From the NCBI GenBank assembly GCA_028703835.1, contig JAQVMB010000001.1:15455-79454 (forward strand): a stretch of DNA of 64,000 bases. Reading direction: 5' to 3'. Both the position numbers and the translations under genes were made by a program. Positions 48,251 through 59,617 of this stretch are shown here, in pieces. Under the pieces are notes generated by a model. That model was not told the origin of the DNA. It saw only the letters and a program-made list of their open reading frames with translations, and did no database searches. This DNA comes from Candidatus Peribacteraceae bacterium. Lineage in GTDB: Bacteria > Patescibacteriota > Gracilibacteria > Peribacterales > Peribacteraceae. The first letter of the stretch is position 1. Every line of letters begins with the position of its first letter.

Positions 48251-50800
<2,550 letters not shown>

Positions 50801-50801
50801 C

Positions 50802-50894
50802 GAGGGGAATCCAAGGAAGCCAAAGAATCCGAGGAATCCAAGGAATTGAGCCTATGCATTCCTTGGCTGCGTTTGGGTCCTTGGATCCTTTTGG
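50802..50894. repeat. 9-mer word palindrome immediately after the gyrB stop
   Basis: GAGGGGAATCCAAGGAAGCCAAAGAATCCGAGGAATCCAAGGAAT-tgagcctatgc-ATTCCTTGGCTGCGTTTGGGTCCTTGGATCC. Confidence 0.8.
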
Positions 50895-51157
50895 TTACCC
50901 GACATAAAAACATGAGAAAATGAGTCAGACTGCAGCAAATTCCACGTCAGGGAATAGGTCATTTCCCCCACCACTATGGCTACCAAGAAAGGAGAAAAGC
51001 AGCGTGACGAAAGCCGAAAAGGCATGACGGAAGAGGAGGAGACGCGTCGAACGGGTATGGGTGAGACCTCGGAGGAGAACGCTGAAGAGTCCGGAACCAT
51101 GCGCGGTCAACAGGCGGATGCGGACGACGAAGAGCCGGGGATGGATCGGATGTGAGA

Positions 51158-51224
51158 AGTTCGTATACCGTATTTCGTATAACGAACGCTATACGAGATA
51201 CGTCATACGCTATACGGAATACGC
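51158..51224. repeat. Palindrome built from 7-nt words (CGTATnn / nnATACG)
   Basis: CGTATAC CGTATTT CGTATAA CGAACG CTATACG AGATACG TCATACG CTATACG GAATACG. Abuts the hisS stop. Confidence 0.8.
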
Positions 51225-51226
51225 AA

Positions 51227-52573
51227 TCAGTCCTCGTCCACCTCCCCGATCTGGTCCCGAAGCACGTATGTGTCCAAGTTCTTTTCGCCGAGGAGCTTGA
51301 TGACCTGCGGGATGGCTTGCCCGTACTTGATCTGCTTCTGCTTCCCGGCCTGCATGTCGCGGAGGATGATCGTGCCTTCCTTCACCTCCATCTTGCCGAG
51401 CAACAGGGCGTACTTGGCTTGGAACTTGTCCGCCAGGCGCATCTGGCTCTTCAGGCTCGCTTCGCCGAGGGCGCCGAGCGTGTGTACGCCTTTCTCACGC
51501 AATTCCGACACGAGCGCGAGGCACTTCTTCTTCGCTTCCGGCCCCAACTGCGCGACGAACACGTCCACCTGGTCCTTGTCGGGGACGCGCACGCCTGCTT
51601 CCTTCATGTGCCAAATCATGCGTTCCATGCCGCCCGCGAAGCCGACGCCCGGCGTGGGCTTGCCTCCGAGCAGCTCGATGAGGCCGTCGTAGCGGCCGCC
51701 TCCTCCGACGGCGTTCTGCGCGCCCGTCGATTGGTCCCACAATTCGAACACCGTCTGGTTGTAGTAATCCAAGCCGCGCACGAGGCCGGGATTGGGCACG
51801 TACCGCACGCCGAGCTCGTCCAGGTATTCCAAGAGCGTTTCGTGGAACTGCTTGCTTTCCCCGGAGAGGAATTGCTCCAATTTCGGAGCGTTGCGGACGA
51901 GTACCTGTGTATCCCCGTTCTTGCTGTCCAAGAGGCGCAGCGGGTTCGTCTGGAGGCGGCGTGCGTCTTCCTCGGGGAGGTTGCGCTCCTTGCCGATGAA
52001 GAAATCCTTGAGGGCGGCGACGTAGGCCTGGCGGTTCTCCGCCGTGCCGATGTTGTTGATCTGGAGCGTGAGGCGGTCGAGGATGCGGACGTCATTCAGG
52101 ATCTTGGTGACGACGTAGATCAGCTGCGCGTCCAGGCTGGGATCCTTCAGGCCGATCACCTCCAGGTCGATCTGATGGAACTGGCGGTAACGCCCTTTCT
52201 GCGGACGGTCGTAGCGGAAGCACTGGCCGATGCTGTATAGCTCCACGGGCTGCGGAAGCTGCTGCATGCCGTGTTCCACGTACGCGCGGCAGATGCCGGC
52301 GGTGAACTCCGGCCGCAGCGCGAATTCCGCCGCCTTTCCCTCATTGTCCTTTTTCCCTGTGACGGTGAAGAGTTCCTTCTCCACGATGTCCGTGTGCTCG
52401 CCGATGCCGCGCTCGAAGACCCCGCGGGACTCGAACATCGGCGTGTCGATGCGCTTGTAACCGGCCTGGCGGGCGCGGTGGCGCACGGCCTTCTTGATGT
52501 ACGTCATGTACTGGTGGTCCTGGGGGAGGACGTCGTGCGTACCTTTCGGGGTGCGGAACAAGGGTTCGGACAT
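51227..52573 (-). CDS. hisS: Histidine--tRNA ligase
   Basis: PKGTHDVLP, LRPEFTAG, QCFRYDRPQKGRYRQFHQ and GGGRYDGL. Confidence 0.95.
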   Translation of the reverse strand: MSEPLFRTPKGTHDVLPQDHQYMTYIKKAVRHRARQAGYKRIDTPMFESRGVFERGIGEHTDIVEKELFTVTGKKDNEGKAAEFALRPEFTAGICRAYVEHGMQQLPQPVELYSIGQCFRYDRPQKGRYRQFHQIDLEVIGLKDPSLDAQLIYVVTKILNDVRILDRLTLQINNIGTAENRQAYVAALKDFFIGKERNLPEEDARRLQTNPLRLLDSKNGDTQVLVRNAPKLEQFLSGESKQFHETLLEYLDELGVRYVPNPGLVRGLDYYNQTVFELWDQSTGAQNAVGGGGRYDGLIELLGGKPTPGVGFAGGMERMIWHMKEAGVRVPDKDQVDVFVAQLGPEAKKKCLALVSELREKGVHTLGALGEASLKSQMRLADKFQAKYALLLGKMEVKEGTIILRDMQAGKQKQIKYGQAIPQVIKLLGEKNLDTYVLRDQIGEVDED

Positions 52574-52669
52574 ACGGAAACGGGAGTCGGGAATGAGGAA
52601 AATGCTACCATCGCGGGTGCGTAATAACAAGGCTTCCCGCTGGGGGAAGCCTCTTCCGACACGGTTCGA

Positions 52670-53491: not shown

Positions 53492-53604
53492 GTTAAATAT
53501 ATTATACTATATTCATATCATATAGACAACTATAAACCTTTGGGCGACTATCCCCTCATATATAGAAAGTAGTACATGATTAATATGACATTATTTAGTC
53601 AAAT

Positions 53605-54894
53605 TTATTCATCCAATACCTCTGATGATTTTCCTCCGCCGATCATCAGAATGTATGGCAACAATAATGGATCTGAAAATCTATACTTATATGATCTCTG
53701 CTTGCCCACTTTTTCTAATATCTTTCCTCTGTCTTCACAAAATTCATTGATATGTTTTTGGAAGGTAGAAATCTTAATATTCTGCCGTTTTAATATTCGA
53801 CTAAGATGAGGAACAACATCTGATAAATAAAAATAGCCGAGATCATCTCGCTCTTTTGTGGAAGCAATTGCACAAGCGAGAAGAACGTCATCATAAAGAG
53901 CATCCTTATGTGCACTATGAATTGCTTTGTAGTATCTGTCTCTAATTGATTGTTCCGATTCATTTACAGCTTTGTGAAAAGAATCGAGTACATCTTTTCG
54001 AAATATTTTTCTGGAACCATGTGAAAGGGCTTCCCGTGTTGAATGCAATCCAATTAGATGTGTGTAATGGGGCATCCCCTGAGATGTGCGAACGATTAGC
54101 GAGGCGGCTGATTCGTCAAAACCTGTTCCTAGCGCATTTGAAGCCTTGCTCAATATTTCTCGCAGTTCCCTTTGATTCATTCTTGGGAGTTGTATTTGAG
54201 TAAGACATCTAACTATTGATGCATGATCTTTAACCAAATCATTTATTGTGTCCGCAACCCCCACAAGGATGATCGTGGTATCAATTCCATAATCAGATAA
54301 TGCTTTAATTAAATCTGTATAATTTTTTCTCACTGCGTGGTCTGCACGATCAAATTCATCAAAAATAAAAACTGATCCTTTCAGCCCCCTAAGCATGCGC
54401 CTCACATCATCAATGGAAAGCTTATCTCCTGAGTTAATGCCCATTTTCTTCTTTAATGAAATTAAATTCTTCTCCTGACCGATATCAAATCCAATAATAT
54501 CGTCGGCAACCAGCATTTCATCAAACGCCTTTTTCCATAAATCACTAAAAGAATCATCTGCGGTAGCATTCACTCGTACAACTAAACGACGATCCTGCCC
54601 TGATAATTCAGTTAGATTTAAAAGAATTTTCGCCATATTCGCTAGAGATGTTTTCCCAACTCCCCTCTCACCAAATAGAACTATATGGAATCCAGTTTGT
54701 CTAACCGAATCAGTAATACGAGTAAGCTGATCCCAGCGTCCCGCAAAGAACTCTCTTCCATTAATTGGAGTTCGTGGTTTAAAAATTGACCCAGCCTTTA
54801 TATGCAGTGCCAGGGACTCATCATCACTTAACTGAATCTCGCTCATGCTGTGCATAGTATCATAAGTTCTCCGACTATACAAAATAGAAGTCAT
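53605..54894 (-). CDS. AAA+ ATPase (archaeal-ATPase / ORC-Cdc6-like NTPase), passenger gene
   Basis: F.GRWDQL...IVLFGERGVGKTSLA (Walker A) and SVFIFDEFDR (Walker B). The C-terminal ~130 aa may be a winged helix. About 34% GC. Confidence 0.75.
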   Translation of the reverse strand: MTSILYSRRTYDTMHSMSEIQLSDDESLALHIKAGSIFKPRTPINGREFFAGRWDQLTRITDSVRQTGFHIVLFGERGVGKTSLANMAKILLNLTELSGQDRRLVVRVNATADDSFSDLWKKAFDEMLVADDIIGFDIGQEKNLISLKKKMGINSGDKLSIDDVRRMLRGLKGSVFIFDEFDRADHAVRKNYTDLIKALSDYGIDTTIILVGVADTINDLVKDHASIVRCLTQIQLPRMNQRELREILSKASNALGTGFDESAASLIVRTSQGMPHYTHLIGLHSTREALSHGSRKIFRKDVLDSFHKAVNESEQSIRDRYYKAIHSAHKDALYDDVLLACAIASTKERDDLGYFYLSDVVPHLSRILKRQNIKISTFQKHINEFCEDRGKILEKVGKQRSYKYRFSDPLLLPYILMIGGGKSSEVLDE

Positions 54895-54974
54895 ACTAAA
54901 GAACAACCTTCTCTAACTTATTGACATAGATGTATAACTATACTCTATTGAAAGAAACTCATTATCCGACTACT

Positions 54975-55163
54975 ATGAAATTCATGGCAAAGAAGAGAAT
55001 TACAACGACGGTTCTGGGCAAACAAGACAGCAAATTTGTTTATCAATTGCTAGTAACTTCCTCTGGCGAAAATACCTCCAGACTAGCAAGGTTAGCAAAG
55101 GAAGTAATACAATCAGAACATGGTGCTAATGCGCCCCTTTCAACCAACAGATCCAAGAGGTGA
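54975..55163 (+). CDS. Small ORF upstream of and overlapping the GNAT gene (possible RHH-type antitoxin)
   Basis: KKRITTTVLGKQDSKFVYQLLVTSSGENTSRLARLAKEVI has a strand-helix-helix-like pattern. This is weak and the start is uncertain. Confidence 0.3.
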   Translation: MKFMAKKRITTTVLGKQDSKFVYQLLVTSSGENTSRLARLAKEVIQSEHGANAPLSTNRSKR

Positions 55164-55728
55164 TTCTTTATTAAGAACAGAAGTGCGGACAGATGAGCAC
55201 AAGGGTCTGCTAGATTTTTATCTAAATGAGGCAAAAAACTGTGAGGAGAATCTAACATCTTTTACATACGATATTGTTTCAGACGATGGAAATTTCTTAG
55301 GTTTTTTCTGTGTCTCAAATAGCCTATTACTTTTAGATGAAAAAGAAATCATGACTGAATTTAAGCGAAAAAAGAACGTTTCATTTGCACCGCCAGCGAC
55401 GCTTCTTGGAAAGCTTTATATATGTAATTGTAATCGTGGAACTGGGATTGGCTCAGAGGTTATCTTATATATAGCAAAAGAAATTTGTTTCAAATCGAAA
55501 TCAGCCTCTCGCTTTATTATTATTGATATTAATGCTCGTAATCCTAATGCCGTTAATTTCTATACAAAAAGAGGTTGGCTACACCCTCGGACATATGCCA
55601 GAAAAATGTTTTTTGACCTCTTGAGATTTAAAATATTTTTGAAAGCTTATAAGGAGCAATGTCGGAACTCATCAGCCGCAGAAATATTGCGATTATTTGC
55701 AATATATCTCCAAGAAGAACAGAACTAG
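55120..55728 (+). CDS. GNAT-fold acetyltransferase-like protein, passenger gene
   Basis: Acetyl-CoA motif A R-G-T-G-I-G (LYICNCNRGTGIGSEVILY) and motif B NPNAVNFYTKRGW. Confidence 0.6.
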   Translation: MVLMRPFQPTDPRGDSLLRTEVRTDEHKGLLDFYLNEAKNCEENLTSFTYDIVSDDGNFLGFFCVSNSLLLLDEKEIMTEFKRKKNVSFAPPATLLGKLYICNCNRGTGIGSEVILYIAKEICFKSKSASRFIIIDINARNPNAVNFYTKRGWLHPRTYARKMFFDLLRFKIFLKAYKEQCRNSSAAEILRLFAIYLQEEQN

Positions 55729-55770
55729 TTTTCTTGCTGTTGAAAACCAAGAGTATAATACAAATTATGG

Positions 55771-56676
55771 CTAATCAAAGTACCGACAAGCACCGATTCT
55801 TTGAGATACTAAGACGTGCGGCAACCCCACACGCGAAAGTAAAAAATGAAAAAGATGCTGATCGGCAGAATGAGCGTAATTATAACGAAAAGAAAATTCT
55901 CCAAGATACAAAGGAAGATACTTTGCAGAAATAACATGGTAGGTTCCATCCAGTGACCGCTTCAACTGCGACCAGAACCCCTCAATGGTGTTCGTGTACG
56001 CGCCGCCTTTCCTATACTGCTTCTCCTTGTGCTTCACCGTCGCATGGCCGAGGCCTTCGACGTTGGTGATGCTCTTGTAGGCTCGAAGCTCGTCCGTAAG
56101 GAGGACTGACCCCTTGGCGATGTTGTTTCGGATGGGGTGCAGGAGGCTCTCTTCCGTCGTGTCCTTCACAACTTCCGCGTGAACCTTGCCCTTTCGCTGA
56201 ACCGATCCAAACACGATGGATTTGTTCTCCATCTTGTGGCGCATGTTCCTCTTCCCGCCAATCCACGTTTCATCCGCTTCCACTTCGCCAGACTGTAGGG
56301 CGGGTTCCTCGTTCATCATCTTCCGTATCTCCTTCGCCATTCTCCACGCGGTTTTGTAGGTCACGCCCACCTGTCGTTCAATCTCCTTCGCCGCAACTCC
56401 GTTCCTCGATTGAGACATGAGGAAGATCGCGTGAAACCACTTCACCAAGTCGGTGGAAGACTTCTCGAAGATCGTTCCCGCCTTCGGGCTGATCTGAGAC
56501 TTTCCGCAGTAGCAGACGTAGTGCGCTGTTTTCTTCTGGCGGTAATACTGTCCGATCAGACCACACTTCGGACATGCGCTCTTGCTGTGGAATTGCTGGA
56601 AAAGATGTTCCAAACAAGCCGCGTCGTCGGGGAAGAGCTTATGGAATTGGGAGATGGTGAACTTCGGAAGCTTCAT
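55771..56676 (-). CDS. IS1595-family DDE transposase
   Basis: N-terminal zinc ribbon (CPKCG...YVCYCG), an HTH region, and the DDE region ending in TNTIEGFWSQLKR. Starts about 40 nt inside the right IR. Confidence 0.9.
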   Translation of the reverse strand: MKLPKFTISQFHKLFPDDAACLEHLFQQFHSKSACPKCGLIGQYYRQKKTAHYVCYCGKSQISPKAGTIFEKSSTDLVKWFHAIFLMSQSRNGVAAKEIERQVGVTYKTAWRMAKEIRKMMNEEPALQSGEVEADETWIGGKRNMRHKMENKSIVFGSVQRKGKVHAEVVKDTTEESLLHPIRNNIAKGSVLLTDELRAYKSITNVEGLGHATVKHKEKQYRKGGAYTNTIEGFWSQLKRSLDGTYHVISAKYLPLYLGEFSFRYNYAHSADQHLFHFLLSRVGLPHVLVSQRIGACRYFD

Positions 56677-56930
56677 ATCTAGGGGGGAACTGCCCTAGAG
56701 ACTACTATTCGGCTTCCTATATGTCAAGGGATAGTCGCCAACCTTTGTGTCTCCTCAGCGAGAAATTACCTATCAATTTCACAAAATGAATCCAGAATGA
56801 GTGGGACGAGTGACGGGCCAGAGCCGGTTGGATTTTTGACATCTGACCCGAGAAAGGAAGGGGAAGGTTTGGAAGGTGGAACCGCAGGTTCCCCTTCCAA
56901 TACTAAAAAATGCGAGCGCGCAGCGTGAGC

Positions 56931-56970
56931 ACCAATCAAAAAAACCTACGCGTAGGTTCTTTTGATTGGT
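56931..56970. terminator. 40-nt near-perfect palindrome abutting the tRNA-His 3-prime end
   Basis: ACCAATCAAAAAAACCTACG|CGTAGGTTCTTTTGATTGGT, one mismatch. Confidence 0.45.
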
Positions 56971-57047
56971 GGGGCGAGCGATGGGATTCGAACCCACGAC
57001 CCTCTGGACCACAACCAGATGCTCTAACCAACTGAGCTACGCTCGCC
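56970..57047 (-). tRNA. tRNA-His (anticodon GTG) with encoded G-1 and CCA
   Basis: The reverse complement GGCGAGCGTAGCTCAGTTGGTTAGAGCATCTGGTTGTGGTCCAGAGGGTCGTGGGTTCGAATCCCATCGCTCGCCCCA folds as a cloverleaf. Anticodon loop is TTGTGGT. The extra 5-prime G pairs with discriminator C. Confidence 0.93.
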
Positions 57048-57178: not shown

Positions 57179-59617
57179 TCAGGATCGGCTGTTTCCGCCG
57201 TTCGCCGGGGGCTGATCCTTCCGCAGATTCGGCGCTTCCACCACGAACACGACGTTGTCGTCGTTCGGTTTCTTCTCGGGCGCGGCCGGCTCCGGCGTTG
57301 TCTGCGGCACGGAAGGAGCGGGTGCGGTCACGGGGGTTTGATCCGTTGTTTCGGTGTTTGTGCTTTCCTTTTCGACACCTTCGGTGTCGGCAACAGGCGG
57401 GAACGCCTGTTGCTCGGACGGGGCTTCCTGTTTGAGTGGGACTGCCGGGGAAGGAGGAGGCGCAGCGACGGGGCTTGCGCTTTCCTTTTCGGCTCCTTCG
57501 GAGCCGGCAACGGGCGGGAACGCCCGTTGCTCAGGGGTTTGCGATGGTGACGGGGCTACGGTTTCAGATTGTTTGCGTTTCTTCAGGTTCTCGCGGTAGC
57601 GCTTGCGCTTGATGCGGCGGCGCTCGCGTTCCTTCTCGGCGCGGGCCTGTTCTTCGGGCGAGGGTTGTGGCGGTGCGGAGGGTGTCGCGGCGGGGCTTTC
57701 GTTTTTCTTTCCGACGTCAACGGCTTCGGCAGTGGGAGGGAGGTTATTCATGCTTGTCCGTTGGTCTGTTCCTTCCTTTTCGACGCCTGCGGCGTCGGCA
57801 GCAGGCGGGAACGCCTGCTGCTGGGACGACGGGGCCTCCTGCTTGAGCAGGGCTTCGGGAGCAGGGGGAAATTCAGCGACGGGGCTTTCGTGTTCCTTTT
57901 CCGGCGCGGGCGGTTCCGTGAAGAGCGGCGGCGGCGCGGGTTCGGGCGTCGCGGGAACGGGCGGTGCGGGCGTCGTGTCCGGAACGGAAGGAGCGGGTTC
58001 CTCCGGCGGGAAGAGGGGAGGGAATGCTTCCGGAGGAGGTTCGGGCGACGGCATCGGTGGGGGCGGAGCGGCCGGGGATTCCTCCTGCGCGGGAACAGCG
58101 GGAGCTTCCCGTTCGGTTTCCGGCGTTGGAGGCGTCGGTTCGGCGGGCGTATCGGCGGCATCCAATCCCTTCTTCAGCCATGCGGGCGCCTCGTCCAAAT
58201 CCACCGGCGGTTCCGGCGGAGGGGCGGGAGGCTCGGGCGGGGGCGCGGGTTCCGGAGGTGTCTCCTCTTCCCGTTCCGGCTCCTGCGCGACGGGCGCTTC
58301 CGGCGCGGGCGCTGAGCGGCGGATTTCCATCGGCGGCGCGATATCGATGGCTCCTTCCTTGCCGTTCCGCACGATTTTCGTTTCCATTTCTTCCAGCGTG
58401 CGCTGGAGGCCGCCGCCCTGCGACGTCAGGCGCGAGAGCAGCCGGACGCCCAGCGCGCCCAGGACGACGACGCCTGCGAGGAGTATGGCGATCGTGAGGT
58501 AGGCTACCCAGCGCCCGCCGATGCCGCGGCTCCCGCCGGAAATGCCGCCGGGCGCGCTCGAGGAGGCGGGGGCGGCCGACGATGCGGAGGACGTTTCCGT
58601 TCCGGGGACGTAGGCTTCCACGGCGAGGGAGCGGGTCGATTGGAACGTCACTTGGCCGTTGCGGAGGTCGCGGACCGTCACGGTGACGTCGTACGTCCCG
58701 CTGCGCGCGTAGAGATGCGTGGGTTCCGTCCGCAGGCTTTCCGTCCCGTCGCCGAAGGACCAGTGGAACAGCAGCGGCATGTCGGAGGGTTGTCCTGCGA
58801 GCGGGAGGGAGAAGCGGATGGCGCCGTCGGGCTGCGCCTGCGCGATGACGGGGCTCGCGGGTTCGGGCGGGATGTCCGAGGCCCCTTCGGGGATGACGGT
58901 GAGCGTTTGCGATGCGGACGTTCCGTCGCCGAGGATCTCGACGAGACGCATCTCGCGCGCCGCGTCGGGCGCGGAGAACCACAGGAAGAGGGGCGTTCCT
59001 GTCGTTGTGAAGAACGTGCCCGCACCCTGATCGTCGTTCGCGGGATCACCGTCGTCGTTCGCGTCGGTGCGTGCGTCGAGATCCAGGTAGCGTTGCGCGC
59101 CGATGCCGCGGAGGGGGAGCAGCCGCAGCACCTGCCGGTCCGGCGGGAGCAGGATGCGGCCTCCCGAGAGCGGAGGATCCGTCGCCACGATGCCGTCCTC
59201 CCCCGCATTCTCCGTCTCTCCTTCCGCAGGATCGCGCGGCAGGACGTTCAGGAAGATCGTGCGTCGTTGGAGCATGCCGTTGCCCAAGGCGGAAGCGTCG
59301 AGCCGGTACGTGCCTTCCTCCACGATACGTACGCGGAAGACTTGCGCCCGTCCCGCCTGGATGAAGGTGCGGTCGCGCGAAAGCACCCATGTGAACTGTG
59401 CCGTCGGATCGTCATGTACGCCGAGAAGCTCGACGATGTCCCCGGTCCGGACGGTCACGTCTTCGGTCGGGATGTCGTTCCGCGGAGGCCCGACCTGTGC
59501 GATCACCGACGCCGCTCCCGCCACGGAGAGCGCCGTGAGGATGACGAACGAGAGCATAACGATGCCCTGCAAAACGAGGGAGGGGAGCCGGAAGGGGCGG
59601 ATGGTGGGAGAGGCCAC
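57179..59617 (-). CDS. Large membrane protein with a PKD domain, a central TM helix and a Pro-rich repetitive tail
   Basis: PKD signature FHWSFGDGTESLRTEPTHLYARSGTYDVTVTVRD. TM helix WVAYLTIAILLAGVVVLGALGV. Tail has PEPP runs and three QQAFPP(V/A)A..G(V/A)EKE repeats. GTG start. Confidence 0.75.
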   Translation of the reverse strand: MASPTIRPFRLPSLVLQGIVMLSFVILTALSVAGAASVIAQVGPPRNDIPTEDVTVRTGDIVELLGVHDDPTAQFTWVLSRDRTFIQAGRAQVFRVRIVEEGTYRLDASALGNGMLQRRTIFLNVLPRDPAEGETENAGEDGIVATDPPLSGGRILLPPDRQVLRLLPLRGIGAQRYLDLDARTDANDDGDPANDDQGAGTFFTTTGTPLFLWFSAPDAAREMRLVEILGDGTSASQTLTVIPEGASDIPPEPASPVIAQAQPDGAIRFSLPLAGQPSDMPLLFHWSFGDGTESLRTEPTHLYARSGTYDVTVTVRDLRNGQVTFQSTRSLAVEAYVPGTETSSASSAAPASSSAPGGISGGSRGIGGRWVAYLTIAILLAGVVVLGALGVRLLSRLTSQGGGLQRTLEEMETKIVRNGKEGAIDIAPPMEIRRSAPAPEAPVAQEPEREEETPPEPAPPPEPPAPPPEPPVDLDEAPAWLKKGLDAADTPAEPTPPTPETEREAPAVPAQEESPAAPPPPMPSPEPPPEAFPPLFPPEEPAPSVPDTTPAPPVPATPEPAPPPLFTEPPAPEKEHESPVAEFPPAPEALLKQEAPSSQQQAFPPAADAAGVEKEGTDQRTSMNNLPPTAEAVDVGKKNESPAATPSAPPQPSPEEQARAEKERERRRIKRKRYRENLKKRKQSETVAPSPSQTPEQRAFPPVAGSEGAEKESASPVAAPPPSPAVPLKQEAPSEQQAFPPVADTEGVEKESTNTETTDQTPVTAPAPSVPQTTPEPAAPEKKPNDDNVVFVVEAPNLRKDQPPANGGNSRS
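57373..57821. repeat. Three copies of a double-hairpin unit inside the coding tail
   Basis: Copies at 57373-57413, 57490-57530 and 57781-57821. Each has a 7-bp stem with a 3-nt loop, then a 10-bp stem with a GGAA loop. Compensatory base changes occur between copies. Confidence 0.8.

Follow-up and report, generated by a model that had tools for sequence, protein, structure and literature searches.

A probable IS1595-family transporter insertion sequence with foreign passenger genes and a compositional break inside its transposase gene in a Candidatus Peribacteraceae genome

What accounts for an abrupt AT-rich interruption of some 3.2 kb in an otherwise GC-rich bacterial genome? The question is raised by a 64,000-nucleotide stretch of a Candidatus Peribacteraceae assembly (GCA_028703835.1, contig JAQVMB010000001.1, positions 15,455 to 79,454), referred to as a whole as the window, in which the flanks of the interruption have a GC content of approximately 0.62, the interval from 53.45 to 55.9 kb drops to 0.32-0.41 and that from 55.85 to 56.75 kb lies at 0.51-0.56. 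A first-pass annotation, made from the sequence without database searches, had read this segment as a recently inserted IS1595-family transposon with intact inverted repeats (IRs), an 8-bp target duplication and about 2 kb of cargo. The analysis described here indicates that the segment very probably belongs to the IS1595 family as a transporter insertion sequence (tIS), both in its identity and in its structure, in which one transposase gene is accompanied by three passenger open reading frames (ORFs), and that the junction between its two compositions falls within the transposase gene.

The element spans 3,197 bp (positions 53543-56739), a length that is fixed by two copies of AACCTTTG directly abutting both IRs. 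These copies, at 53535-53542 on the left and 56740-56747 on the right, were read directly and form a perfect 8-bp target-site duplication. Each IR has 27 nt, and the two agree at 23 of these, including all of the first 12; the distal repeat (IRL), GGCGACTATCCCCTCATATATAGAAAG, is located at 53543-53569 on the plus strand and the transposase-proximal repeat (IRR), which reads GGCGACTATCCCTTGACATATAGGAAG as the reverse complement, at 56713-56739 on the minus strand. An inverted repeat search of the region ranks this pair at the top, and the 12-nt tip, GGCGACTATCCC, has exactly two occurrences within the window, one at either end of the element. Base for base, these are the repeats, duplication and boundaries that the first-pass annotation had described. 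As judged from the sequences of relatives, the ends are more than a chance pairing, a status that derives from homology rather than from statistics: related elements possess the same IR tips with perfect 8-bp duplications of their own, IRL is homologous to the distal ends of two of them (on contigs L002 and L003), and IRR is homologous to the proximal ends of relatives.

The transposase gene (55771-56676, minus strand) encodes a protein of 301 aa whose family membership, already proposed from the sequence, is borne out by matches to Pfam DDE_Tnp_IS1595 (PF12762; E = 5.8e-38, profile positions 3-153 of 153) and to NCBIfam transpos_IS1595 (NF033547; 192.7 bits against a cut-off of 75). In a 12-sequence alignment the residues D135 (EADETW), D195 (LLTDE), E232 and K239 (both in NTIEGFWSQLK) are invariant, with K239 located seven residues past E232. 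This D, D, E and K arrangement agrees with the catalytic motif reported for IS1016/IS1595 elements (PMC12561309). Relatives of the protein number in the thousands, the closest having 89% (on contig L001), 80% and 74% identity, and the closest, along with most of those that are named, originate from Candidatus Peregrinibacteria/Peribacteria assemblies. Every annotated plasmid relative is named 'IS1595 family transposase', and one further label, 'ISSpo3, transposase', was assigned to a relative by its source. The gene is regarded as intact because these proteins, of 298-303 aa and with a conserved C-terminus, align over its full length through to the very end. Its ATG at 56676 lies 36 nt in from the inner edge of IRR, close to the 40 nt first estimated, and IRR itself holds a TTGACA at 56722-56727. 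Proximal ends contain TTGAC in 45 of 53 elements and distal ends contain TTGA in 14 of 53; in all six close relatives inspected, a TAnnCT follows 17 nt downstream of TTGAC, the corresponding stretch of the window being 56699-56727. The proximal IR may supply a candidate -35 element (TTGACA) for the transposase promoter, and would do so at one end only.

The structure of the element is placed on a firmer footing by relatives that share its ends and carry different cargo. Among the contigs of the closest relatives, L002 holds an element of 2,350 bp flanked by the duplication GAGAAAAT, and L003, L004 and L008 hold one of 2,708 bp flanked by CAAAATTG, both having the same IR tips as the window's copy. 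Similarity at the DNA level between the window and these close relatives is confined to nt 1-962, which start at the proximal IR and run to the stop codon of the transposase gene; past that point the relatives continue with cargo unrelated to that of the window and close with a distal IR that is homologous. In a census, 80 loci taken from species-representative genomes were screened for the IR tips together with an exact 8-bp duplication, and elements were delimited at 51 of them, ranging from 1,379 to 6,643 bp, with less than one chance match expected by our own estimate. The census includes Peregrinibacteria, Saccharibacteria, Acidobacteriota, Chloroflexota, Alpha- and Gammaproteobacteria and other taxa. 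Cargo is present in 51 of the 51 delimited relatives, each of which extends at least 0.5 kb past the transposase, and the 119 main cargo ORFs are distributed over 106 sequence clusters and 70 Pfam families that include PemK/MazF, SocA/Panacea, M78+HTH, CdiA_C, N6 methylase, DUF3800 and Replic_Relax. Neither clustering nor Pfam matches revealed a conserved second gene among these 119 ORFs, and the cargo of the window was found in none of the other delimited elements. Over 53 elements the consensus of both ends is gGnaanTATCCC, with TATCCC invariant, and the distal repeat of the window fits the family consensus, gGnaanTATcCCcT. The cargo-bearing architecture is therefore widespread and, within this clade, always cargo-bearing. 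The family also prefers AT-rich targets: 48 of 49 elements have 50-nt flanks with less GC than the genome around them (0.45 versus 0.57, p = 7e-15), a trend that the flanks of the window's copy follow (0.27 versus 0.62).

A tIS is defined by an IS-like structure, with a single transposase, IRs and a target duplication, to which passenger genes inside the IRs are added, and such elements are known in the IS1595 family (bioRxiv 10.1101/2021.05.26.445724), which generates 8-bp duplications (7-9 bp in the IS1016 group; PMC12561309), as the first-pass annotation had correctly stated on both counts. The element of the window resembles this class in having one DDE(K) transposase that is Cys-rich in its N-terminal region, in IRs that begin GGnnAnTAT, in its 8-bp duplication, in the three passenger ORFs that separate the transposase stop from the distal IR and in a length of 3.2 kb, within the 1.4-6.6 kb of its relatives. 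It differs in a host lineage of the candidate phyla radiation (CPR) that, to judge by the nearest transposase relatives, is probably Peregrinibacteria-like, in a cargo that occurs in no other element examined and in the composition break inside its transposase gene. Mechanistically, the single DDE transposase would recognise both IRs through their GGCGACTATCCC tips and move everything between them as a unit, and staggered target cuts 8 bp apart would leave the AACCTTTG duplication; the remaining 2.2 kb, in which the AAA+ ATPase and small-ORF/GNAT pair of the first-pass annotation are indeed present as ORFs, would be foreign AT-rich passenger DNA with no role in transposition. Siguier et al. 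(2009) and ISfinder are said to describe an ISNwi1-type subgroup of IS1595 with passenger genes. The observed ends, gGnaanTATCCC, and the DDEK residues would fit the features of that subgroup, whose ends read ggnnatTAT.

How the two compositions came together is a separate question. The element had first been described as a mosaic of a transposase with about 52% GC and a cargo with about 34%. Two compositions do exist, although they measure 54.1% and 37.0% GC, and the maximum-likelihood change point is at position 55938, around codon 246 of the transposase gene and not at the end of that gene. As the break falls inside the gene, the mosaic is not simply one of transposase versus cargo. GC content at third codon positions (GC3) is high in codons 1-240 (181 of 240) and low in an AT-rich patch formed by codons 241-280 (55837-55956, minus strand; 8 of 40, Fisher p = 2.8e-11), compared with 0.29-0.30 for the cargo genes (0.30 for the ATPase gene). 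In L001 the same codons, 241-280, have a GC3 of 0.65-0.85, with the encoded protein identical or nearly so. The simplest reading of these values is that a single AT-rich family member supplied the 3' end of the gene together with the cargo and the distal IR. The element would thus be a recombinant in which the proximal IR and codons 1 to ~245 (~54% GC) are joined to codons ~246-301, the cargo and the distal IR (~37% GC), cargo having been exchanged through a crossover of two family members inside the conserved transposase gene. One possible route would start from a nested or tandem insertion, with a later deletion between the two transposase genes, then present as direct repeats; like the activity and recency of the element and the functions of its cargo, the route of recombination is something that we infer.

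The same break could in principle have arisen in two other ways, in that a plain family member already resident at this site may have acquired the AT-rich 3' part and the cargo in place, in a second step, or that the contig may be an assembly chimera of two related elements. Both are consistent with a composition break that is sharp and located within a region conserved among family members, which is where homologous recombination and assembler switching would be expected to occur, and an exchange in place would yield a target duplication of the same appearance. However, both sides of the break, the AT-rich one and that of 54% GC, connect to the same host locus, by a homologous IR and a matching 8-mer, and the flanks restore the spacing between tRNA-His and HisRS that is seen in relatives: subtraction of 3,205 bp from the distance in the window gives that of related loci. 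Either scenario would also need a second switch inside the distal IR, which at 27 bp would be too short for efficient recombination and for typical assembly k-mers. Taken together, we consider a two-step or chimeric origin to be quite unlikely.

The reading that we prefer, of a recombinant tIS, nevertheless has a number of points weighing against it. The case for recombination is built on codon composition, because at the protein level the ranking of relatives by residues 1-240 versus 241-298 shifts by two residues only. A switch by the assembler at the conserved 3' region of the transposase gene would also undercut it, but we consider this unlikely, each half being anchored at one and the same host site. 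The zinc ribbon of the transposase (PF12760) scores 16.3 bits, under the cut-off of 25.4, its cysteines C35, C38, C55 and C57 being invariant. The first-pass annotation had proposed that further copies and the empty site be sought, and neither was found: no second copy of the element turned up, a 28-mer spanning the junction, where direct joining of the flanks would read ...CTATAAACCTTTGTGTCTCC..., was absent from the metagenome and genome collections, and, of 80 HisRS-syntenic loci (the best 87% identical), none aligns across the junction. A recent, single-step insertion would fit a duplication without mismatches and a transposase gene that is intact; it is left at plausible, the searches having turned up no empty site, nor any relative similar enough to be aligned across the junction.

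Two further observations concern the transposase gene. The closest relative, at L001:1-11978, lies on a 24.7-kb Logan contig (SRR29243427) that has the same proximal IR and a phage-like content, with a GP3_package match and many small unknown ORFs, and that ends short of any distal IR; this context suggests that IS1595 elements of this clade are carried by phages. The last ~15 codons of the gene (55783-55836, SRVGLPHVLVSQRIG) hardly differ in DNA sequence between the window and L001-L003, synonymous sites included, despite their AT-rich surroundings. We also considered whether codons 281-290, where the DNA is conserved in four relatives, form a conserved RNA hairpin, and dropped the idea, since the predicted structure is not kept in L009 or L010.

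The first cargo gene (53605-54846, minus strand) encodes an Orc1/Cdc6-like AAA+ ATPase of 413 aa in the form that begins MSEIQL, the frame remaining open back to a TTG at 54906 (433 aa). In Pfam the Orc1/Cdc6-type initiator clade is covered by the models nSTAND1, AAA_22 and ATPase_2; the protein matches nSTAND1 at 43.3 bits (cut-off 27.1) and also AAA_22, and contains invariant Walker A (GERGVGKT) and Walker B (DEFD) motifs. Its AlphaFold model (pLDDT 90, pTM 0.86) comprises an AAA+ base, a lid and a C-terminal winged-helix-like domain, and Foldseek places Orc1/Cdc6 proteins on top, both archaeal Cdc6/Orc1 and eukaryotic ORC subunits, matched over the full length with E-values to 3.5e-11. Although the Walker motifs, the base and lid and the winged-helix-like domain are thus shared with Orc1/Cdc6 ATPases, identity to them is 12-17% and the TM-scores are only 0.40-0.55, the family is bacterial or phage-borne and solitary, the window's copy is located in a transposon, and a role in origin recognition or replication is unsupported. 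In comparison with STAND conflict systems, the protein is without a typical effector domain. The family, of ~430 aa, is distributed across many phyla, the best relative being 60% identical, and is strongly related to the uncharacterised phage family phrog_6841 (E = 5.6e-49). Its members have no conserved neighbouring gene, and PADLOC returned only weak matches to known defence systems (E at least 0.0014). As a side observation, members occur in 48 viral or prophage contigs from IMG/VR (L168-L215), making the family a candidate prophage accessory ('moron') gene. In a separate locus (L007:4616-7642), a relative is found between the gene for a 400-aa Y-family polymerase (IMS) and an 83-aa IMS-like fragment, and may have inserted into, or beside, a duplicated polymerase gene.

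An ATPase gene inside a transposable element invites the suggestion that it is a transposition helper, a target selector or regulator comparable with IstB of IS21 or with TnsC/TniB of Tn7-type and Tn5053 elements, which would make the element a two-protein IS1595 derivative. These helpers belong to the same broad AAA+ initiator clade, the ATPase has a weak Pfam TniB match (22.9 bits, just over the 22.4 cut-off), TnsC structures appear at ranks 47-48 of the Foldseek matches, and the ATPase and transposase genes have the same orientation. Despite this, a relative of the ATPase is present in none of 52 other delimited elements; its relatives are solitary, in unrelated contexts without a transposase and with no conserved linkage to one, and are common in prophage contigs; its best structural likeness is to Orc1/Cdc6; and its codon composition is that of foreign cargo. 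IS1595 elements are not known to require a helper. A helper role is accordingly considered very unlikely, and the protein is most likely a solitary DNA-binding-type AAA+ switch and not transposition machinery. It would most likely act as a DNA-binding ATP switch with a mobile-element or conflict function, any specific role being doubtful. There is scarcely any chance that the segment is a plain IS lying beside an unrelated AT-rich islet, with a coincidental distal IR and duplication, as the difference in GC between the transposase part and the rest of the segment might suggest, for the distal IR is homologous to those of relatives and fits the family consensus, an exact 8-mer flanks the entire 3,197-bp unit and the same layout recurs in 51 loci, so that the relatives already refute it.

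The remaining cargo consists of two overlapping genes on the plus strand. The second cargo gene (54984-55163, from an ATG at 54984 in a frame open from 54930) encodes a small basic protein of 59 aa and overlaps by 44 nt the start of the third (55120-55728), which encodes a 202-aa GNAT acetyltransferase of a rare, divergent branch. The latter has a weak match to Pfam Acetyltransf_1 (20.8 bits) and a clear one to the phage-type acetyltransferases of phrog_1758 (E = 7e-11), and a single-sequence search of the PDB gave KacT as best match (E = 0.0065). A word-indexed search returned no relatives of the GNAT, whilst 82 were recovered when 1.84 billion representatives were searched exhaustively with HMMER, five of them at E < 1e-20 (33-39% identity). 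With a family profile made from 32 of these 82, the top 16 PDB matches range from 5e-29 to 4e-11 and include KacT (5zgn) and AtaT (6gtp and 7chd, both structures of AtaT according to PMC7595197), the two being matched at 1e-27 to 5e-29, whereas other GNATs follow from 7e-7. At all six loci with close GNAT relatives, a homologous basic ORF of 58-71 aa overlaps the start of the GNAT gene by 38-77 nt, and the pair is regarded as a conserved, translationally coupled module for this reason.

GNAT toxins acetylate aminoacyl-tRNA and thereby block translation, and are neutralised by antitoxins of the DUF1778/ribbon-helix-helix type (PMC9177977, PMC6698736). By analogy, there is an even chance that the pair in the window is a toxin-antitoxin-like module, in which the GNAT would acetylate charged tRNA, the small basic protein would neutralise the GNAT, and the two, as an addiction module, would stabilise the element. 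In common with the type II modules KacAT, AtaRT and TacAT, a small upstream gene overlaps a GNAT gene of ~170-200 aa, and the profile of the GNAT family matches KacT and AtaT far ahead of ordinary GNATs. Other findings set the pair apart from these modules. The partner had been expected to be a ribbon-helix-helix/DUF1778 antitoxin, which is not supported: the small ORF has no Pfam match, and a profile of six partners matches nothing in the PDB even at E = 10. The GNAT of the window is without the N-terminal FDCG motif of the wider family, its branch has a ~35-aa C-terminal extension, and that branch is very rare, as the five relatives at E < 1e-20 among 1.84 billion representatives indicate. 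Since the partner has no detectable DUF1778 or ribbon-helix-helix similarity and the GNAT no FDCG motif, the toxin-antitoxin reading draws on gene organisation and remote homology; and, because the partner resembles nothing in Pfam or among known structures, the pair is called toxin-antitoxin-like and not a member of the GNAT/DUF1778 class.

The two cargo units diverge from an intergenic region (54847-54983) with promoter-like sites for both, one on the minus strand at 54990-54961 (TTGCCA-18-GATAAT, 10/12) and one on the plus strand at 54948-54976 (TTGAAA-17-TACTAT, 9/12); these are consensus matches only, and the number of such sites is not above shuffled expectation. Elsewhere, the GNAT module forms an AT-rich islet in varied contexts: it sits between gyrB and HisRS on L236, within an island of the restriction/defence type on L238 and behind the gene for a release factor on L239. 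In the first of these (L236:3652-5841, NCBI GCA_964628345.1), a relative of ~35% identity lies between convergent gyrB and HisRS genes, and the window has the same gyrB/HisRS synteny at 48290-52630, without a GNAT module there. Two independent placements of the module within 3 kb of HisRS may be a coincidence, other relatives being elsewhere. In the second (L238:1-4708), the module adjoins genes for a methylase, a ResIII/SWI2-SNF2 helicase, a TnsA-like endonuclease and a PD-(D/E)XK protein. The possibility that the ATPase and the GNAT operate as one system was examined and discarded, the gene beside the GNAT relative of L236 being HisRS, with no ATPase.

The insertion site itself is intergenic and AT-rich, as had been proposed, with tRNA-His on one side and the promoter of an operon containing a 273-aa ORF and HisRS on the other. 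tRNA-His(GTG), at 56970-57046 on the minus strand, was identified by ARAGORN and by Rfam (69.6 bits), is the sole Rfam match over 52-58 kb and lies 223 nt from the element. On the other side, the 273-aa ORF, which precedes HisRS, starts 51 nt downstream of the element, and a host promoter-like site for this operon (TTGTCT-17-TATAAT, 10/12, a consensus match only) is located at 53501-53529 on the minus strand. The core promoter of the HisRS operon was probably left intact by the insertion, as this site sits between the duplication and the start codon, 5 nt from the former. Most of 77 related loci have tRNA-His upstream of HisRS, often at 1.1-1.3 kb, and the transposase is absent from all 77. 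Beyond the element, a near-perfect palindrome at 56930-56971, with 21-nt arms that are 95% complementary and no spacer, abuts the 3' end of tRNA-His and is probably its terminator. Past the tRNA gene, an 812-aa ORF (57179-59617, ~70% GC) encodes a very proline- and alanine-rich protein with internal repeats (...QQAFPPVA..EGVEKE...), and short repeated motifs (CGTATAC, ACGCTATACG and similar) at 51150-51226 end the gyrB/HisRS spacer, just past the HisRS stop.

The element accounts for the abrupt 3.2-kb compositional anomaly in this genome and marks three genes as horizontally acquired passengers. The tIS class within IS1595 was known already, and current understanding is not overturned; what is added here is the spread of the cargo-bearing architecture, the intragenic composition break and the identity of the cargo. 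A bolder proposal is that the clade is a general gene-cassette shuttle, operating from the CPR to Proteobacteria and Acidobacteriota, in which cargo is swapped by recombination inside the conserved 3' end of the transposase gene, and that the window's copy carries two undescribed conflict modules, namely a GNAT toxin with an antitoxin of a new, non-DUF1778 type and a solitary Orc1/Cdc6-like ATPase serving as a single-gene anti-phage or element-maintenance factor; in this full form we regard it as unlikely. The intragenic break does, however, offer a testable route for cargo exchange, and the relatives establish small single-transposase elements as a widespread vehicle for miscellaneous accessory genes, among which are toxin-antitoxin genes in the small genomes of the CPR, where mobile elements are poorly catalogued.

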